This document shows positions 14,417-22,689 of a DNA stretch of 64,000 nucleotides, in pieces. The translations under genes and the position numbers were made by a program. Each line of letters opens with the position of its first letter. Position 1 is the first letter of the stretch. The stretch is taken from assembly GCA_963795085.1 (NCBI GenBank), contig CAWCFX010000002.1, positions 224,001-288,000 of the forward strand, written 5' to 3'. The notes under the pieces are model-generated. The model had not been told where the DNA came from and searched no databases. It saw only the letters and a program-made list of their open reading frames with translations. This stretch comes from an uncultured Gemmatimonadales bacterium (GTDB taxonomy: Bacteria; Gemmatimonadota; Gemmatimonadetes; Gemmatimonadales; GWC2-71-9).

Positions 14417-14907
14417 GAGCGCGCCGGAGGAATGGTGATCACCGAAGTCGGCTGGTCGAAATCCTCACCGATCGCATGGGGGAGGGCCGGATCGGCCACC
14501 CAGCGGGTGCCATCGACTACGAAGGTGAACTGATACCGGCCCGGCGGCAATGGGAGGATGGCTTCCCATCGCCCGGTGGCCGTCGTGCGGCGGAGGGGGG
14601 TTGCCAGCGGGTCCCAGTTGTTGAAATCGCCAACTACGCTTACCCGGCTGGCCTCCGGTGCCTCGAGGGCAAACGGCACACCGCCCGGGGGGCGGCCGGG
14701 GGTCCGAACCAGGAGCAGGGCCAGGGCGGCCATGCCGGCGGCCAGGGCTCCTCCCGCCCAGACCCAGGTCCGCGGGCGGGACTGCGACCCGGGCCGGGCG
14801 ATTGCCGTCATGACCCGGTCCCGCAGGGCCGGGTCGAGGGGCACCGGCTCACGCAGGTTCCGGGCGATGGCCTGGATCAGCTGATCCTCGTGTTCATCAC
14901 CGGTCAT
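14413..14907 (-). CDS. Putative anti-sigma factor: single TM plus CBM48/isoamylase early-set domain
   Basis: Short N-terminal helix, TM WVWAGGALAAGMAALALLLV, then APEASRVSVVGDFNNWD...PPGRYQFTFVVDGTRWVADP. Overlaps the sigma stop codon. Confidence 0.8.
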   Translation of the reverse strand: MTGDEHEDQLIQAIARNLREPVPLDPALRDRVMTAIARPGSQSRPRTWVWAGGALAAGMAALALLLVRTPGRPPGGVPFALEAPEASRVSVVGDFNNWDPLATPLRRTTATGRWEAILPLPPGRYQFTFVVDGTRWVADPALPHAIGEDFDQPTSVITIPPARS

Positions 14908-15466
14908 GATACACCTCGCCGAGCTGGGCGCGCAGCCGTTCACAGGCACGCTTGACCCGCATCTTGAGGGCGGGAATGCTGGCGCCCAGGATGGGTGCCA
15001 TCTCTTCGTAACTCATCTCATCGACGTACTTGAGGAGAAAGGCCTCGCGCTGCTCCGGCACGAGGTGGGCCAGCGCACGCTGAATTTCTTCCCGCCAGGC
15101 GGCATCGTCCACTGGCGACCCCCGGGCGGCCAGGTGGGCTTCCCTGTCCACGTCCACGGACTGACCGCGCCGCTTCCGGATGCCGTGGGCCGTGCGGCAG
15201 CGATTGACGAGGATCCGGAAGAGCCAGGCCCCGAATCGTTCGGGCTCCGCGCACTGGCCAAGGAAGCGATACCCCCGGATGAAGGTGTCCTGGAGGGCAT
15301 CCTCGGCCTCCTGCCAGTCTCCCAGCAGGTGCGCCGCATACCGGCCAAACCGGTCGCGGTAGCGGTCCATCAGTGCGCCGTACGCCGTTAGGTCTCCGGC
15401 CCGTACCCGGCCCACGAGGGCGGCATCGCCGTCAATCACAGGAGGGAGACTCGGGGAAATCGTCAC
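14897..15466 (-). CDS. ECF RNA polymerase sigma factor
   Basis: DAALV...GDLTAYGALMDRY, AEDALQDTF, FGAWLFRILVNRC, QREAFLLKYVDEMSYEEMA. Confidence 0.92.
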   Translation of the reverse strand: MTISPSLPPVIDGDAALVGRVRAGDLTAYGALMDRYRDRFGRYAAHLLGDWQEAEDALQDTFIRGYRFLGQCAEPERFGAWLFRILVNRCRTAHGIRKRRGQSVDVDREAHLAARGSPVDDAAWREEIQRALAHLVPEQREAFLLKYVDEMSYEEMAPILGASIPALKMRVKRACERLRAQLGEVYHDR

Positions 15467-16032: not shown

Positions 16033-17070
16033 ATGAGATACCGCCTGATTGCCACGACACTGCTGGCCGCTCTGTGGGTGGGAGCGTGCGACAACAAGAT
16101 CGCCGACCCGCTTCCTGGCGAGACCGCCATGATCCGCCTGGTCCACGGGGCTGCATCGCCGGGCGCACTCGACTTGCGGGTGGATGGCGCCGCGGTCCTG
16201 GCCAGCGTGGCCGCGACCCAGATCTCGAGCTACGCGGAGGTGGCCGCGGGGACCCGGACAGTCAGCGTAACCCTGGCGGGCTCCAGCCAGGTCCTGTTGA
16301 CGCGGCAGATATCTCTGGCTGCGGACGGCGAGTACACCGTCCTGGTGTCCGGCACACCAGGGTCGCCCGAGTGGATGATTGCCTCGGACACGGCATTCAT
16401 CCCGCTGGCGGGAAAGGCAAAGATCCGGGTCCTGCACGCCGCCCGCCAGGCGCCTCCCCTGGACGTGTACCTGACGACCCCGGGGGCCGACCTGGCGACC
16501 TCGTTCAAGCTGGTCGAGCCGTTTGCGTTCAACGTGAATGACACCGCGTACTTCCCCGGGTTTGCGGAGCGCGATCCGGGCGACTGGCAGATGCGGTTCA
16601 CAGCGGATGGAACGACCGACGTGGTCCTCGACACCGGCCCCTTTGCGGCGGGGGCGGGAAAGGTGATCACCGTGATCCTGTCCCACGATGGCGGGAATGC
16701 CCTGGTGGCCCGGATCGTGGATGAAACTCCCGGTACAACGCCCCAGCGAGTGGCCATCCGGGTGAACCACGCGGCACCGGCGGTGCCCAATGTCGCGCTT
16801 CACCTCACGGACCCGGGGGCGGACCTGAACCTCCCTCATCTCACGATTTCGCCGTTCAACTATGGGGTGGACAGCAGTACCGTGACGTTCATGCTGCCGC
16901 CGAACAACCAGAACAGCCTGGACTTCGAGGTGCGCTTCACCGAGATCGGCACCCTGAACCTGCTCGCTTCCTCGGGGGCGGTCTCGGCGCCGGTGAATGC
17001 GAGCAAGCTGGTCACCCTGCGGCCGGCCCAGGGCGGCGGCCTGGAGGTGGTCGTGACGGACGCGCCCTGA
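16033..17070 (+). CDS. DUF4397-domain lipoprotein
   Basis: Lipobox VGAC. Three repeats: IRLVHGAASPGALDL, IRVLHAARQAPPLDVYL, IRVNHAAPAVPNV. Confidence 0.8.
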   Translation: MRYRLIATTLLAALWVGACDNKIADPLPGETAMIRLVHGAASPGALDLRVDGAAVLASVAATQISSYAEVAAGTRTVSVTLAGSSQVLLTRQISLAADGEYTVLVSGTPGSPEWMIASDTAFIPLAGKAKIRVLHAARQAPPLDVYLTTPGADLATSFKLVEPFAFNVNDTAYFPGFAERDPGDWQMRFTADGTTDVVLDTGPFAAGAGKVITVILSHDGGNALVARIVDETPGTTPQRVAIRVNHAAPAVPNVALHLTDPGADLNLPHLTISPFNYGVDSSTVTFMLPPNNQNSLDFEVRFTEIGTLNLLASSGAVSAPVNASKLVTLRPAQGGGLEVVVTDAP

Positions 17071-17114
17071 GCATTCATCTGGCCGGGAGGCGCGGTTATA
17101 TTACGCCCGCGTTT

Positions 17115-17202
17115 GGACGGGTGGCCGAGTGGCTTAAGGCGCACGCCTGGAAAGCGTGTGGGGGTCTCAAGCCCCTCGCGGGTTCGAATCCCGCCCTGTC
17201 CG
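17115..17202 (+). tRNA. tRNA-Ser(GGA), long variable arm, CCA not encoded
   Basis: Acceptor stem GGACGGG/CCTGTCC, D-arm TGGCCGAGTGG, anticodon loop CTGGAAA, T-loop GGTTCGAATCC, discriminator G. A -10-like TATATT lies at 17097-17102. Confidence 0.95.
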
Positions 17203-17229
17203 TCGGGTCCTGCCTCCGCGGGTGAATCC

Positions 17230-17257
17230 TTGTTCCGCCCGGTATCGTACCTAGATT
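17230..17257 (+). promoter_or_regulatory. Putative sigma70 promoter of the copper operon (leaderless start)
   Basis: TTGTTC-N16-TAGATT, ending 6 nt before ATG 17264. No SD. Confidence 0.45.
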
Positions 17258-17263
17258 CCTGTC

Positions 17264-17614
17264 ATGTCCTCCCGGTCCCTTCGATCCCGGATCGCAGCCC
17301 TGGTGCTGCTGCTCGCCTCCCCCGGCCTGGCCGGGGTGGCGCTTGCCGCGGCCCATCCATGTCCGGACCAGGCACCCTGGACCGTCGAGCCGGGCGATCA
17401 TCACCACGCCCCGGCTCCGGCGGAGCAGCATGATTGCCATTGCATCGGCAGTTGCCAGACCGCCGTCCCGGCCCCGATTCCTGCTACGGGGGACGTGCTC
17501 ACCCCGGTCGAACCCGTCGAAGCGGTCGTCCCCCGCTTTGAGGCCGGGAGCCGCATCCATCCGGTCCAGCCTCGCCACCGCCTTCCTCCCGCTACCGCAC
17601 CTCCCCAGCTCTAA
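17264..17614 (+). CDS. Secreted Cys/His-rich leader protein with Pro-rich C-terminus (CruR/CutF/DUF2946-like uORF)
   Basis: Signal peptide, HPC, HHH, HDCHCIGSC and C-terminal RHRLPPATAPPQL. Directly upstream of a TonB-dependent receptor. Confidence 0.75.
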   Translation: MSSRSLRSRIAALVLLLASPGLAGVALAAAHPCPDQAPWTVEPGDHHHAPAPAEQHDCHCIGSCQTAVPAPIPATGDVLTPVEPVEAVVPRFEAGSRIHPVQPRHRLPPATAPPQL

Positions 17615-17703
17615 CGGCAGCGCGGTTCGCCGCGCCTGATGTGCCCCGCCACCGGCGGGGCGCATCGACATGACCATTGCCTTGGAGCCTTCATCTTGGG
17701 GAG
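17601..17703 (+). promoter_or_regulatory. Predicted SD-sequestering RNA structure
   Basis: CTCCCCA (17601-17607) is the exact reverse complement of TGGGGAG (17697-17703, the receptor SD). Two hairpins are nested between them: GCGCGG-TTCG-CCGCGC (17620-17635) and a 13-bp stem at 17638-17666. Confidence 0.6.
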
Positions 17704-17707
17704 CATC

Positions 17708-20008
17708 ATGCATGCACGTGGCATTGTTATGACGGGCCTGCTGGCCGGACTGGTTTCCGCGTCCGCCCAGGCCCAGAACGGAAGTATCAGCGGGACCGTG
17801 ACCGGAGCGGTGAGCGGCCAGGTCATCGCGGGGGCTACCGTGTCCGTGGCGGGATCCGCCCGGAGCGTCGCGACCGACCGGGTGGGACACTATCGCCTCG
17901 CCGGCGTCGCGCCGGGCCGATTGGTCCTCGATGTCCGGCAACCCGGGTATGACCCGGTGCGCCGCGAGGTGGATCTCGCGATAGACCAGGTGATGGTCCA
18001 GAACTTCGTGCTGAGCGCGGCGGCGACCGAGCTCGCCGCCCTGACGGTGATCGGTTCCCGCAGCGACCTGCAGGAGACCCGGCAACGGCTGGACCAGGTC
18101 CCCGGCGGGGTGGACCTGGTGTCCGCCGAGGAGATTCAGTCGACCCGCCAGGCCAATCTGCGAGACGTGCTCAGGATGACGCCGGGAGTCTTCGTGCAGC
18201 CGCGGTTCGGGGCCGCCGACGAGAGCCAGATCAGCATCCGGGGCTCCGGGCTTCGAAACAATTTCCACGCGCGGGGCGTCAATCTGCTGGTCAACGGGAT
18301 GCCCTACCGCAATGCCGACGGGTTCACCGACTTCGAGTCGCTGGAGCTGCTCAACACCGAGGCCATCGAGGTGTACAAGGGCGCCAACGCGCTCCGCTAC
18401 GGCGGGTCCACCATGGGCGGTGCCATCAACCTGCACACCCGGACCGGCTACACGTCCCCGGGGCTCTCGGTGACCGCCGAGGGCGGAAGCTTCGGATTCC
18501 TCAAGGCCCAGGTGGCGGCCGGAGGTGTCAGCGGCGGCTTCAACTATTTCGCCAGCTACGCCCGCACCGAGCTGGAAGGCTTCCGGGACTACAACGTGCA
18601 GGGACGCGACCGGGTCAATGCCCACGCCGGCTATGTTCTGACGCCCTCGACCGATCTGCGGGCCTTTTACTTCTTTGCCCGGGTGAATGAGCAGCTACCC
18701 GGCGCGTTGACGGCGACGGAATTCGCCGCGGATCCGACCCAGGCCAACGCCGGCAACCGCGCCGGCCGCTGGGGACGGGACTACGACCTGCACCACCTCG
18801 GGCTCCAGCTCCGCAGCCAGCCGGGCGCCAACCAGCGGCTGGAGATCAACCCGTACTTCCAGTACCGGGATATCGATCACCCGATTTTCCGGGTCATCGC
18901 CCAGGTCAGCCGCGACTACGGCGCCGAGATCCGCTACGAGAATGCGAACCCCATCGGGGGACGGACCAACCGCTTCGTGCTGGGGGTGCAGCCCGCGTTC
19001 ATGCGCCTGGACAACCGCCAGTTCGACAACCAGGCCGGCCAGCATGGGTCGCTCCGGAAGGACCAGGAGGACGGGGTCCAGGCGCTCGCGGTGTACGCCG
19101 AGAACATGCTGGGCCTGACTTCCCGGCTCTCCCTGGTGCTGGGGGCCCGGTTCGATTACTCGACTCGCAAGACCGAGGATTTCTTTCTTTCGGACGGCGA
19201 CCAGTCCGACGAACGCACCTACCAGCCGCTCAGCCCCAAGGTGGGGGTCCTCTATGTCATGGACGGCGACGGGCAGGTGTTTGCCAACGTGAGCCGGTCC
19301 TTCGAGCCGCCGCTCCTGCTGGAACTCAACAGCCTGACGGTGCCGGGGTTCATCGACCTCGAGGGGCAGGACGCGCTCCAGTTCGAGGTGGGGACCCGGG
19401 GCCGGTTCGGCGGATTCCGCTGGGACCTCTCGCTCTATGACGTCGAGATCCGCAACGAGATTCTGAACGTGAACGTGGAACCGTTCCCCGGCGCCGGGTT
19501 CACGGTGCCCACCTACCGGAACGCGGCGAAGACCAGACACTACGGCATCGAGGCCGGGGCCCAGTACGGCATCCCAGGCCCGCTCCTCACCGCCGGCCAT
19601 GGCGGCGACGGACTGCTGCTCCAGGCAGCCTACACGTTCGGCCACTTCACCTACGTTGAGGACGGGGCGTTCGGCGGCAACGACATCCCGGGCGCGCCCC
19701 GGCACGTGGTGAACGCCGAAGCCAAATACGTTCACCCCTCCGGTTTCTCCCTGGCCCCGAGCGTGGAGTGGGCACCGACGTCGTACTTTGTGAACAGCGA
19801 GAACACCGAGACCAACCGGGGCTGGATCAACCTTGGTCTCCGGGCCGAGTGGGCCCTGCCGGGGCCGGGGCTCACGATCTTCGCTGCCGGGCAGAACCTG
19901 ACCGACACCCGCCGTTCCCCCTCGGTCCAGGTGGACAATGCCGCCGGCCGTTTCTACGAGCCGATGGATGGCCGGTCCTATTACATCGGCCTGCGGTGGG
20001 GCCGGTAA
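17708..20008 (+). CDS. TonB-dependent receptor with N-terminal carboxypeptidase-regulatory-like domain
   Basis: Signal AQA-Q, GSISGTV domain, plug motifs ISIRGSG, LLVNGMP and IEVYKGANALRYG, C-terminal GRSYYIGLRW. Confidence 0.93.
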   Translation: MHARGIVMTGLLAGLVSASAQAQNGSISGTVTGAVSGQVIAGATVSVAGSARSVATDRVGHYRLAGVAPGRLVLDVRQPGYDPVRREVDLAIDQVMVQNFVLSAAATELAALTVIGSRSDLQETRQRLDQVPGGVDLVSAEEIQSTRQANLRDVLRMTPGVFVQPRFGAADESQISIRGSGLRNNFHARGVNLLVNGMPYRNADGFTDFESLELLNTEAIEVYKGANALRYGGSTMGGAINLHTRTGYTSPGLSVTAEGGSFGFLKAQVAAGGVSGGFNYFASYARTELEGFRDYNVQGRDRVNAHAGYVLTPSTDLRAFYFFARVNEQLPGALTATEFAADPTQANAGNRAGRWGRDYDLHHLGLQLRSQPGANQRLEINPYFQYRDIDHPIFRVIAQVSRDYGAEIRYENANPIGGRTNRFVLGVQPAFMRLDNRQFDNQAGQHGSLRKDQEDGVQALAVYAENMLGLTSRLSLVLGARFDYSTRKTEDFFLSDGDQSDERTYQPLSPKVGVLYVMDGDGQVFANVSRSFEPPLLLELNSLTVPGFIDLEGQDALQFEVGTRGRFGGFRWDLSLYDVEIRNEILNVNVEPFPGAGFTVPTYRNAAKTRHYGIEAGAQYGIPGPLLTAGHGGDGLLLQAAYTFGHFTYVEDGAFGGNDIPGAPRHVVNAEAKYVHPSGFSLAPSVEWAPTSYFVNSENTETNRGWINLGLRAEWALPGPGLTIFAAGQNLTDTRRSPSVQVDNAAGRFYEPMDGRSYYIGLRWGR

Positions 20009-20076
20009 TGGCGGTGCCCCGGACCGGTGCCTGGCAGTATAAATTGCAACCTGGGGTCGTCCCGGGGAGGTCTTCC

Positions 20077-21390
20077 ATGAGATGGCAGGCAGTAGCGTTT
20101 TCAATGGCGTTGCTCGCTGGGTGCAACGGAGACGCGCCGCGCGCCGGGCTGGCGAGCGTGATGCTCCCGGTTCCGGCCGGCGGGGCAGAGACGGCGGATG
20201 CCGCGCTGGCCCGCGACCCGGAAACTGGCGATGTCCTGCTCAGCTGGGTCGGCGGCGATAGCGCGGGCTGGGCGCTCTATTTCGCCCGGAGCGGAGACGA
20301 GGGTCAGACCTGGGAATCCGCGACCGCGGTGACGGCGCCGGGTCTCGACCTGCGGCCCACCGGAGAATCCTCCCCCCGGCTGGTTCCCGCGGCCGGGGGC
20401 AGGGTCGCCCTGGTATGGACCCGGAGCGTCCCGGTGCCCGGGCAGCGGTGGCCGGCGACCGAGATCAGGATCGCCCGGTCCCTGGATGGCGGCGCCACCT
20501 GGTCGCCCCCGCTCACCCTGAACGACGACAGCGCCGGCACGCCGGCGGGGCACCAGTTCCAGGGGGCGGCCTGGCAGGGCGACTCGGGGCTGGTGGTGAG
20601 CTGGCTGGACGAGCGGAAGGGCGCAGCGGAGCGAGTGCTCGGCGGGACCAGCCCGACAGCAGGGGACCCGACCGATGAGCCGGACGCGGTCATCGTCACG
20701 GCCTTTTCACCCGACTTCGGGCGCACCTGGGGCCAGTCGAATGAACTCCTGTGGGGACAGGTCTGTCCCTGCTGCCGGGTGACGCTGGCGCGCCACCCCG
20801 ATGGATCGGTGATCAGCGCGTGGCGAAAACACTATCCCGGGAACATCCGGGACGTGGTGACAGCACCAGTGGCGCCCGGCCTGCGAAGCGAGCCGGTCCG
20901 GGTCAACCAGGACAACTGGGTGTATCCCGGCTGTCCCTATACCGGACCGGGTATCGCCGTGGGCCACGATGGGGCCAGGCATGTGGTCTGGTACATGGGG
21001 AAGGAGGGCGCCGCGGGGGTCTATTATCAAAGAGTGGACCAGGGCGGGTCGCCGGCCGATCCACCCCTGGCGTTAATACGGGCCCAGACCTTGCCATCGG
21101 CCCATACCACGGTCGCCGCGTTGCCCGGCGGACGCGCCCTGGCGGCCTACGACCAGACCGGGACGGGAGACCGGGCGGTCGGCCTGTCCTTGATTGGGGC
21201 CAGCCGGGATGTCCTCGAGCAGCACACCATTGCCGGCTCGGAAGGCGGGCAATATCCCCAGGTGCTGTCGGTCGGGCCCGGACGGGCCCTGGTTGCCTGG
21301 GTCGGCCGCAGCGGCGAACGACGCGCCGTGCGCCTGGCGGCGATAACTTTCAACGCTTCAGAGGGATCCGCAGTGGCCCTCAGGGACTAG
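20077..21390 (+). CDS. BNR/Asp-box (sialidase-like) beta-propeller lipoprotein with CPCC motif
   Basis: Lipobox LAGC. Asp boxes SGDEGQTW, SLDGGATW and SPDFGRTW. VCPCCR and GCPYTGP motifs. Confidence 0.8.
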   Translation: MRWQAVAFSMALLAGCNGDAPRAGLASVMLPVPAGGAETADAALARDPETGDVLLSWVGGDSAGWALYFARSGDEGQTWESATAVTAPGLDLRPTGESSPRLVPAAGGRVALVWTRSVPVPGQRWPATEIRIARSLDGGATWSPPLTLNDDSAGTPAGHQFQGAAWQGDSGLVVSWLDERKGAAERVLGGTSPTAGDPTDEPDAVIVTAFSPDFGRTWGQSNELLWGQVCPCCRVTLARHPDGSVISAWRKHYPGNIRDVVTAPVAPGLRSEPVRVNQDNWVYPGCPYTGPGIAVGHDGARHVVWYMGKEGAAGVYYQRVDQGGSPADPPLALIRAQTLPSAHTTVAALPGGRALAAYDQTGTGDRAVGLSLIGASRDVLEQHTIAGSEGGQYPQVLSVGPGRALVAWVGRSGERRAVRLAAITFNASEGSAVALRD

Positions 21391-21394
21391 CATC

Positions 21395-21790
21395 ATGCGA
21401 CTCCGAGTACCGCGATCGGCGCTGGCCATGGCGGCAGCCGTCCTGCTGTTTCCGGCCGCGTTTCATCTCCGGCTGGTCAAGAGCCTCCCCGGCGACGGCG
21501 ATGTGCTATCCTCCGCGCCGCCCGAAATCCAGCTGTGGTTCAGCCAGAAGCCCGAGATGGGACTGACCACTATCCGCCTGCTGCGTCCGGACAGTTCGAA
21601 AGTGGAGACCGGCCCGGTGGCGCCGGCCGACGACTCCCTGGCCGTCAAGGCGAAAATCGGCAGCGCGCTTGTCCCCGGCCGTTACACCGTCACCTGGAAG
21701 ACGGCTTCCCGGGACGGCCACGTGGTCCGGGGCAGCTATGATTTCATGGTGGTGCCCGGCCCCCCGGCGAGGAAGCAATCGGGCCCCTGA
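21395..21790 (+). CDS. copC: Periplasmic copper-binding protein CopC
   Basis: Signal peptide then HLRLVKSLP. IQLWFSQ and YTVTWKTASRDGHVVRGSYDF motifs. Confidence 0.9.
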   Translation: MRLRVPRSALAMAAAVLLFPAAFHLRLVKSLPGDGDVLSSAPPEIQLWFSQKPEMGLTTIRLLRPDSSKVETGPVAPADDSLAVKAKIGSALVPGRYTVTWKTASRDGHVVRGSYDFMVVPGPPARKQSGP

Positions 21791-22689
21791 TGGACCTGCT
21801 GCTGCCCGTCGCCCGGTGGATCGGCTCCCTCGGTCTCGCGGGCCTGGTGGGAGCGGCGACCTTTCAGGCCATTATCCGACTCCGGCTGGCCCGGCACCAT
21901 TCTGCCGCCGCGCCCCGGCTCATTGGGCGGGCCCGGGCCGGGGCCTTCATCTCCCTCCTGCTCATTCTCGCATCGCTGGCGCTCAAGCTGCTGGGCCAAC
22001 TGCAGGCACTGGTGGACCCGGGTGAGGCCGTTACCCGCGAGCTGTTTGATCTTGCGGTCCTCCAGTCTTCCTGGGGACACAGCTGGCGTATCCAGGCCGG
22101 TGTCGCGGTGGCGGCGCTGGCCGGTGTGCTCCTGCTACGGAACACCTGGGCCCTGGTGGTGTTCGCGGTGGCGGCGGTGGCGGTCGCACCGCTCACCGGC
22201 CATGCGGTGGAGCACCCGTGGGGCAGGGACGTCGGGATCGCCCTGCACGGGTTCCATGCCCTCGGCGCCGGCGTCTGGCTGGGCACTCTCGCGATGGTGC
22301 TGGGCGGTGGGTACGCCGGGACGCGCGCGCTCCCGGAGGAGGACCGTCACCGGCTGATCGCCGACCTGGTGCACGCTTACTCGCCGGTGGCGCTCACCGG
22401 GGTGGCCGTGATCATCGCGGCGGGCCTCGCGATGACCTGGACATACGTGGATCCGCTCTCCGGGCTCTGGAGTACCGGATACGGCCGGGTCCTGCTGCTC
22501 AAGATCGTGCTGCTGGCCGGCACTGCAGGGCTCGGCGCCTACAACTGGAGGCGGGTCCGTCCCCGGTTGGGGGAGGCCGCCAGCAGTGCCCAGCTCTATC
22601 GTTCGGCCACGCTGGAACTGGTGCTGGGCGCGCTGGTGCTGGGCGCCACCGCCGTACTGGTGGCCATGGCCGCGCCGGGACTGGAATAA
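21790..22689 (+). CDS. copD: Inner-membrane copper import protein CopD
   Basis: Multi-TM. LTGHA, HALGAGVWLG, TGYGRVLLLKI and LGAYNW motifs. Coupled to copC. Confidence 0.88.
   Translation: MDLLLPVARWIGSLGLAGLVGAATFQAIIRLRLARHHSAAAPRLIGRARAGAFISLLLILASLALKLLGQLQALVDPGEAVTRELFDLAVLQSSWGHSWRIQAGVAVAALAGVLLLRNTWALVVFAVAAVAVAPLTGHAVEHPWGRDVGIALHGFHALGAGVWLGTLAMVLGGGYAGTRALPEEDRHRLIADLVHAYSPVALTGVAVIIAAGLAMTWTYVDPLSGLWSTGYGRVLLLKIVLLAGTAGLGAYNWRRVRPRLGEAASSAQLYRSATLELVLGALVLGATAVLVAMAAPGLE

Follow-up and report, generated by a model that had tools for sequence, protein, structure and literature searches.

The upstream open reading frame (uORF) at 17264–17614 (+ strand, 116 aa) in a 64,000-nt stretch of DNA from an uncultured Gemmatimonadales bacterium (GenBank assembly GCA_963795085.1, contig CAWCFX010000002.1, positions 224,001 to 288,000; the whole stretch is referred to as the window) ends in codons that are complementary to the ribosome binding site in front of the following gene, a TonB-dependent receptor of 766 aa (17708–20008, + strand). 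The heptamer CTCCCCA (17601–17607), located within the codons CCT CCC CAG (P113 P114 Q115) of the uORF, is the exact reverse complement of TGGGGAG (17697–17703), 5 bases 5' of the receptor ATG at 17708; a sequence-only reading of the locus had proposed this match, and the sequence confirms it. The receptor's Shine-Dalgarno (SD) sequence, GGAG (17700–17703), lies inside this heptamer, and a spacer of 93 nt separates the uORF stop from the receptor start. According to the interpretation that we tentatively prefer, the uORF is a copper-responsive regulator of the CruR/CutF kind whose pause and stop codons double as an anti-SD sequence, such that the time a ribosome dwells at a C-terminal TAPP motif sets the opening of the receptor SD, with Rho possibly acting on the closed state. 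In silico, this interpretation is supported by the pairing, its recurrence in related loci, the fit between the two strands, a bias in codon choice, the architecture of the protein, and the gene context; we infer pausing at TAPP, the sensing of copper, and the sign of the response. The uORF had earlier been labeled a leader. The idea of a short leader peptide was dropped, as the reading frame is a conserved 116-aa protein gene, with a CruR/CutF-like build that is recognized from its translation, its family profile and the spacing of its motifs.

The complementary heptamers are part of a larger predicted structure. The segment 17570–17730 has a minimum free energy (MFE) of −73.5 kcal/mol (z = −4.39), and none of 200 shuffled sequences folds as well. 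In the MFE structure, positions 17601–17607 pair with 17697–17703, positions 17608–17614 (including the TAA stop) with 17682–17688, and positions 17616–17619 with 17678–17681, forming an interrupted closing stem of about 18 bp around a three-way junction with two hairpins. The 5' strand of the closing stem (17599–17619, + strand) is composed of the anti-SD CUCCCCA, the segment GCUCUAA with the stop codon, and GGCA; the 3' strand (17678–17703, + strand) is composed of UGCC, UUGGAGC, an 8-nt bulge (17689–17696), and UGGGGAG. The SD-sequestering helix is present in the ensemble as well as in the MFE structure: the probability that the SD pairs with 17599–17614 is 0.90, 0.98, 0.99 and 0.99 in four unconstrained folding windows of 161 to 587 nt. 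Both hairpins that had been described as bridging the two strands exist. Hairpin 1 (17620–17635, + strand; GCGCGG-UUCG-CCGCGC) has a 6-bp G+C stem with a UUCG loop and begins 6 nt after the stop. Hairpin 2 (17637–17667, + strand) pairs 17638–17650 with 17654–17666, a G+C stem of 13 bp plus a possible U-G pair as the 14th, with a 3-nt loop and no U tract 3' of it. A scan for terminators between 16900 and 18000 found no site, and the hairpins are therefore not canonical intrinsic terminators. An Rfam scan of 16500–18500 (E ≤ 1) reports a single tRNA and nothing in the spacer. The possibility that the hairpins are repeat elements was discarded, as each is unique in the 3.9-Mb genome. Related loci contain 1–4 strong hairpins per spacer, and a hairpin of at least 5 bp begins within 10 nt of the stop in 22 of 33 of them; in the structural model, such hairpins would bring the uORF stop and the receptor start close together in space. 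The UUCG tetraloop on the hairpin after the stop is also found in two loci from other genera (L034 and L036), with different stem sequences.

Taken alone, the window does not make the pairing significant. The 7-mer occurs in 9 copies on both strands of the window, compared to 16 expected from shuffled sequences, and an exact 7-mer match in the roughly 150 nt upstream would be expected for about 1% of genes. When the ends of 200 random reading frames of the same genome are joined to the spacer of the window, 18% equal the native end in their pairing with the SD. In favor of the stem, only one of 30 synonymous variants of the last 15 codons pairs as well as the native sequence. The earlier caveat that a 7-nt match can arise by chance in GC-rich DNA is thus justified for the single locus, but the pairing recurs in related loci, and it is from these that the support comes.

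For the analysis of a ribosome at the end of the uORF, we assumed that the ribosome covers the message from −12 to +16 relative to the P-site codon, and placed P113 in this site. The assignment of P113 to the P site and P114 to the A site is taken from the toeprint reported for CruR, in which the two Pro codons occupy these sites (PMC12992588). The putative pause site is the conserved C-terminal Pro motif LPPATAPP (17582–17605, + strand; codons CTT CCT CCC GCT ACC GCA CCT CCC), characterized by its codon counts and by its excess of C over G. A footprint on the APP codons covers the entire 5' strand, and in the masked fold the long-range stem is gone; the cost of opening 17695–17713 decreases from 12.1–14.4 to 6.1–8.6 kcal/mol, i.e., by 3.5–8.3 kcal/mol. 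Across the 47 related loci described below, the footprint lowers the mean opening cost from 12.1 to 8.8 kcal/mol.

Under the preferred interpretation, the uORF would head a copper-uptake operon consisting of the TonB-dependent receptor, a BNR-like protein, CopC and CopD, and its last codons (A112 P113 P114 Q L stop) would form the 5' strand of the approximately 18-bp stem that buries the receptor SD 93 nt downstream. A ribosome that occupies the Pro-Pro codons and covers the message to a point beyond the stop would block the stem, and a second ribosome could load at 17697–17710. If the ribosome finishes and leaves quickly, the stem would re-form and receptor translation would be shut off; the untranslated message may then also undergo Rho termination. 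The dwell time at TAPP would presumably be set by the nascent chain: a CxCxxxC motif located 46 residues upstream, just beyond the exit tunnel, could bind copper or feel the pull of export. For an uptake operon the expected sign would be ON at low copper, as for CruR.

The recurrence of the pairing was evaluated in 47 of 71 small-ORF loci, comprising 24 loci with hand-set downstream starts and 23 with semi-automatic starts that looked sound; the remaining 24, in which the downstream start was ambiguous or no long reading frame came next, were excluded before computation. One locus from a genome flagged as unpublished (L029, genome G105) is included in every count. Each locus was folded from 45 nt upstream of the stop to 20 nt downstream of the start, and the score averages, over positions −14 to −5, the probability of pairing with the final 45 nt of the uORF. 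The score is at least 0.6 in 28 of the 47 loci (17 of the 24 with hand-set starts; by family, 23 of 33 loci from that of the window and 5 of 14 from its sister family), compared to 18 of 277 control pairs, which are crude same-strand gene pairs of this genome with spacers of 50–170 nt. Random reading-frame ends joined to the 24 spacers yield a mean pairing of 0.23, compared to 0.60 for the native ends. The two strands also fit each other locus by locus: the duplex formed by the final 30 nt of the uORF with the 35 nt preceding the start has an energy of −21.2 kcal/mol for native combinations and −18.0 kcal/mol when uORF ends are swapped (47 loci), none of 2000 permutations reaches the native mean, and the mean rank of the native combination is 13.2 versus 24 expected (5 of 47 for the window). 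The register of the closing stem differs between loci, and the spacers are unalignable.

Codon choice at the end of the uORF deviates from genomic usage. The first Pro of APP is encoded by CCT or CCA in 20 of 24 loci (across the genome, these codons make up 20% where Pro begins a Pro-Pro pair and 10% for Pro overall), the Ala of APP by GCA or GCT in 16 of 24 loci (21% genome-wide for Ala before Pro), and the Leu of LPP by CTT in 8 loci (4.8% genome-wide). The LPPATAPP stretch is rich in rare codons ending in A or U and poor in G, and the choices at APP create strings such as CUCC, CUCCAC and CCUCC. Synonymous recoding according to genomic codon usage lowers the pairing from 0.545 to 0.361, and the native end outperforms at least 27 of 30 recodings in 20 of the 47 loci, compared to 8 of 60 control pairs.

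The protein encoded by the uORF consists of an export signal (residues 1–30), the sequence HPCP (31–34), a CHCIGSC motif (58–64) and LPPATAPP (107–114), followed by QL and the stop, such that its C-terminus reads ...RLPPATAPPQL, with two residues between TAPP and the stop. Three Arg and a subsequent hydrophobic stretch of 20 residues were taken, by eye, as the mark of a signal peptide. The CxCxxxC codons (C58–C64; 17435–17455, + strand) contain the CxxxC found in CutF and encode a putative copper site, based on conservation in relatives and on mutagenesis reported for CruR and CutF (PMC9426467, PMC9973294); C58, C60 and C64 are invariant across 36 aligned relatives. A family profile built from six relatives matches 97 of 401 sampled genomes of the order, distributed as 52 of 186, 44 of 187 and 0 of 27 over its three families. 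The spacing of the motifs was scored in 63 of the 71 loci, the other 8 having a variant Cys motif. In all 63 loci with both motifs, 44–48 residues lie between the last Cys of CxCxxxC and the xAPP tetrad (46 in the window and in 36 loci), and the tetrad is located 1–5 residues from the stop in 57 of the 63. The tetrad itself is TAPP in 40 loci, NGPP in 5, IGPP in 5, HAPP in 4, and another sequence in 9; its first residue is T, H, N, I, Q or V and never Arg. The residues between the two motifs are poorly conserved while their number is held at 44–48, which points to a co-translational ruler rather than a folded protein. By analogy with its published counterparts, the product is expected to act as a sensor that is short-lived and poorly ordered.

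By sequence, the family stands apart from known ones. Searches against Pfam and NCBIfam return no family for the uORF product (no match to PF11162, the DUF2946 profile, at E ≤ 0.1), and a scan of the whole genome with PF11162 at E ≤ 10 yields no match to this reading frame and one weak match elsewhere (C1:66020, 13.5 bits). Database proteins with 52–59% identity exist; all 43 database relatives of the family are unnamed, and none has any Pfam domain. PF11162 exceeds its cut-off in 9 of 301 genomes of the phylum, in separate paralogues with a true CxxC...RAPP architecture. An hhalign comparison of the uORF family (36 sequences) with 8 such Gemmatimonadota proteins gives a probability of 9% with 4 aligned columns. 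Neither the Pfam profile nor the profile-profile comparison thus detects homology to DUF2946, and the uORF is CruR/CutF-like by anatomy: it fits a rule-based definition of CutF-like proteins, while its sequence does not pass the tests for DUF2946. No relative turned up in two metagenome scans, and a scan of genome contigs yielded one locus, in a Gemmatimonadota metagenome-assembled genome.

The gene that follows the uORF is of the TonB-receptor type in 39 of the 47 related loci, MbnP in 4 (L060, L063, L071 and L078), an outer-membrane channel of the Phenol_MetA_deg type in 2 (L043 and L044), and unassigned in 2. The presence of genes other than receptors after the uORF indicates that the regulator is associated with more than one kind of copper-related cargo gene. 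Spacers measure 51–156 nt in the 24 hand-checked loci. One contig (L002/L015, G030:C69) carries tandem copies of the uORF, with the second homologue about 100 nt after the first and no receptor between them; the contig ends there.

The kind of system considered here is already known from work published between 2022 and 2025. The DUF2946 protein CruR (Bp2923) of Bordetella pertussis carries a CXXC and a RAPP motif 45 residues apart, a distance reported to be conserved within 1–2 residues (PMC9426467). It heads an operon for a TonB-dependent transporter, which follows after a structured spacer of 162 nt; the ribosome arrested at RAPP is described as shielding the message from Rho, with the arrest being relieved by copper (Roy et al. 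2022, PMC9426467). The uORF of the window shares with CruR the position of a small exported protein as the first gene of a copper-related operon, the long G+C-rich spacer before a TonB-dependent transporter, and a Cys motif about 45 residues before an xAPP tetrad that is a few residues from the stop. MbnP and CopC are among the neighbors of both the cruR homologues, according to the synteny given in PMC9426467, and the present family. The two differ in that CruR has CXXC and RAPP (about 3 residues before its C-terminus), whereas the present protein has CxCxxxC and TAPP and lacks CXXC; in that CruR acts by Rho-dependent termination, whereas here a predicted long-range stem links the stall site to the SD; and in their hosts, B. 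pertussis versus Gemmatimonadota. CutF of Rhodobacter capsulatus combines a Sec signal with a CxxxC motif and a C-terminus rich in Pro, and its stalling is reported to melt an RNA structure that shields an SD (Ozturk et al. 2023, PMC9973294; bioRxiv 10.1101/2025.02.05.636593). The uORF product resembles it in its Sec-type signal, CxxxC, Pro-rich C-terminus and SD-shielding RNA structure, the latter predicted in silico, and it passes the rules for CutF-like proteins: fewer than 150 aa, PP within the last 15 residues (113–114 of 116), a signal peptide (by eye), a Cys/His metal site, and a downstream gene that shares its strand and lies within 1000 nt (spacer 93 nt). In CutF, however, the anti-SD (CTTC) lies in a local intergenic stem-loop and the target is a copper-induced multicopper oxidase for detoxification; here Pro-Pro, Gln, Leu and stop codons hold the anti-SD, which would act over 93 nt and two hairpins on an uptake receptor.

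The layout also resembles SecM, MifM and VemP, in which arrest near the end of an exported upstream reading frame is reported to disrupt a structure hiding a downstream SD (PMC9973294). These three sense secretion rather than metal and have unrelated arrest sequences and a local stem. Their sequestering stem uses the 3' end of the regulator reading frame. A C-terminal xAPP near the stop of a small exported protein is likewise found in the RAPP/RGPP arrest peptides ApdA, ApdP and ApcA, which arrest with Pro-Pro in the P and A sites. Their Arg is reported to be essential, with loss of arrest in all 19 substitutions (Fujiwara et al. 2025, PMC12992588), and R139A abolishes the arrest product of CruR (PMC12992588); the uORF family, unlike these peptides, never has R in the tetrad (0 of 63). 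Any pause at TAPP is therefore more likely of a weaker, EF-P-sensitive Pro-Pro type. The leader mechanism outlined in the sequence-only reading is partly supported: it holds in its pairing, in its logic and in its published precedent of the CutF/SecM type (PMC9973294), and is weakened by the absence of the RAPP Arg and by an incomplete release of the SD.

Bona fide DUF2946-type paralogues show a comparable arrangement in other Gemmatimonadota. In L092, L094 and L100 such a paralogue (CxxC ... RSRAPPLPISL, followed by the stop) lies upstream of a gene for an ABC-transporter ATPase-like protein. Its last codons, CUUCCCAUCUCUC, are complementary over 10–12 nt to GAGAGAUGGAA directly before the downstream ATG, and the predicted pairing between SD and reading-frame end is 0.83–0.98. 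For L091, pairing of the stop region with GGAUUCAGGAG is predicted at 0.50. Among the bona fide DUF2946-type loci, SD pairing of at least 0.6 is found in 3 of 9.

An alternative that we consider doubtful as a full account, while giving it more weight than the others, is transcription attenuation of the CruR type alone. In this case the C-rich, G-poor last ~60 nt of the uORF would be a Rho-loading site and the anti-SD match a side effect of Pro codons and G depletion: a ribosome on TAPP would cover the site while the polymerase, paused at the hairpins, reads on, and once the ribosome leaves, Rho would terminate transcription before the receptor. This is the published mechanism of the closest analogue, with the same gene order and a structured spacer of 162 nt, and a C>G bubble is reported for the Rho-loading site in cruR (PMC9426467). 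Such a bubble is also found in the last 60 nt of the uORF in 33 loci (mean C 0.48–0.55, G 0.15–0.26), the last two 20-nt bins in the window having 12 C and 2 G, and 11 C and 2 G; Rho_RNA_bind exceeds the Pfam cut-off in two reading frames of the genome (G000:C6:493065-493286 and G000:C4:395105-395269). Much of the comparative signal is also expected from a C-rich, G-poor Rho-loading site as in CruR, and several results weigh against the preferred interpretation on this account. When the G count of each codon is preserved, recoding removes most of the native advantage (native 0.545 versus 0.443, with the native end in the top class in only 8 of 47 loci; in the window 8 of 25 such recodings pair as well as the native end), indicating that the codon bias is largely G depletion and equally explained by a Rho-loading site. 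Swapping uORF ends between loci leaves the ensemble pairing at 0.52 versus 0.60 for native ends, so the greater part of it would arise wherever a C-rich end of Pro codons faces a G-rich SD. The pairing is also not universal: 19 of the 47 loci score below 0.6, start codons are semi-automatic in 23 of the 47, 24 of 71 loci were left out for unclear downstream starts, and, the related loci not being independent, permutation and binomial-type contrasts overstate significance. Attenuation alone, however, leaves unexplained the locus-specific fit of the strands (0 of 2000 permutations) and the position of the complementary segment exactly on the SD in 28 of 47 loci, and a 60-nt bubble is short for a Rho-loading site. 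Attenuation and SD masking are moreover compatible, as hiding the SD would by itself leave the message open to Rho.

SD masking by a dwelling ribosome, as we prefer it, faces further objections, and the evidence for it is wholly computational. The earlier claim that a ribosome paused on APP frees the receptor start is borne out in the folding model as far as the long-range helix is lost and opening becomes cheaper, but in the masked fold the SD remains roughly 70% paired, now within a weaker local hairpin, and a decrease of the opening cost by at least 3 kcal/mol is found in only 21 of the 47 loci. TAPP, furthermore, is without the Arg reported as essential in RAPP arrest peptides and CruR (PMC12992588, PMC9426467). 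A second alternative is an ordinary operon, in which the uORF would encode a working periplasmic copper-binding protein or chaperone, the hairpins would stabilize or process the mRNA, and any SD masking would amount to plain translational coupling that each terminating ribosome opens, without sensing or pausing. A terminating ribosome (footprint 17597–17625) opens the stem as well as a paused one (7.5–8.8 versus 6.1–8.6 kcal/mol), TAPP is without the arrest-essential Arg (PMC12992588), and the Pro-rich end of CutF alone is reported to give no stall in a LepB reporter (PMC9973294). We nevertheless regard this explanation as improbable: the length between Cys motif and xAPP is fixed at 44–48 residues with unconserved sequence in between, and the location of xAPP 1–5 residues from the stop in 57 of 63 loci is a hallmark of CruR and CutF. 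Chance complementarity without any function at the RNA level is the least probable of the explanations. It is in keeping with the frequency of 7-mer matches in G+C-rich DNA (about 1% per gene) and with the 18% of random reading-frame ends that pair as well with the spacer of the window, but is at odds with the recurrence of the pairing across genera, the mutual fit of the strands, the codon bias at the motif, and the large contrast with control gene pairs.

The genes around the uORF are as follows. The receptor, whose start at 17708 was picked from the SD and the signal peptide, consists of a signal peptide, a CarboxypepD_reg domain, a Plug domain and a barrel according to the domain search. 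The rest of the putative operon (20009–22689, + strand) encodes a BNR-repeat-like protein (ending at 21390, start not fixed), CopC (21395–21790) and CopD (21790–22689). Upstream, a tRNA-Ser(GGA) gene (17114–17204) ends 60 nt before the uORF start; a promoter scan of 16900–18000 found no site, hence none between the tRNA and the uORF start. Shortly upstream of the tRNA are genes for an extracytoplasmic function (ECF)-type sigma factor (14897–15466, − strand) and a DUF4397 protein (16033–17070, + strand). In two relatives (L002 and L003) the loci are preceded instead by MsrP/MsrQ-like genes, identified by reading the translations by eye, so the upstream context is not conserved. The uORF has no visible SD sequence, and the 19 nt before its ATG (17245–17263), tacctagattcctgtc, are relatively rich in A/T. 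CruR is reportedly translated at a low level.

What appears new is a Gemmatimonadota family that is missed by the DUF2946 profile yet keeps the ruler of 45–46 residues, the use of TAPP for RAPP, and an anti-SD that sits in the pause and stop codons and would act over about 93 nt of hairpins. Among the matches listed, a literature search returned no paper that pairs CruR or CutF with Gemmatimonadota, and the phylum is absent from the main texts and searched supplement files (3 each) of the CruR and CutF papers, whose figures and other supplements may list members. With more reserve than for the window itself, the arrangement may extend to a Pfam-invisible Gemmatimonadota clade of copper-sensing uORFs with TAPP and CxCxxxC, present in about a quarter of the sampled genomes of the order, in which the pause codons would serve as the anti-SD and 2–3 hairpins would compact a spacer of 90–140 nt.

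Copper sensing by nascent chains is a young field (CruR in 2022, CutF in 2023 and 2025), with two studied examples and two different read-outs, to which the locus adds a phylum with almost no genetics. The ruler of 45–46 residues between Cys motif and xAPP looks like the actual defining feature of the mechanism, and the predicted long-range stem offers a testable route by which a stalled ribosome could control an SD about 100 nt away. The authors of the CruR study deem a long spacer incompatible with coupling (PMC9426467), and those of the CutF study expected stall-driven melting to be limited to short spacers (PMC9973294). If this wider reading, with a whole clade using its pause codons as the anti-SD, is true, long spacers would be compatible with stall-controlled translation, contrary to these arguments, and the SD-shielding and Rho models would be unified; the layout shared by L092, L094 and L100 hints at a reach beyond the clade. 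Should the stem be a by-product of a Rho-loading site, the locus would still extend the CruR mode of regulation to a motif other than RAPP.

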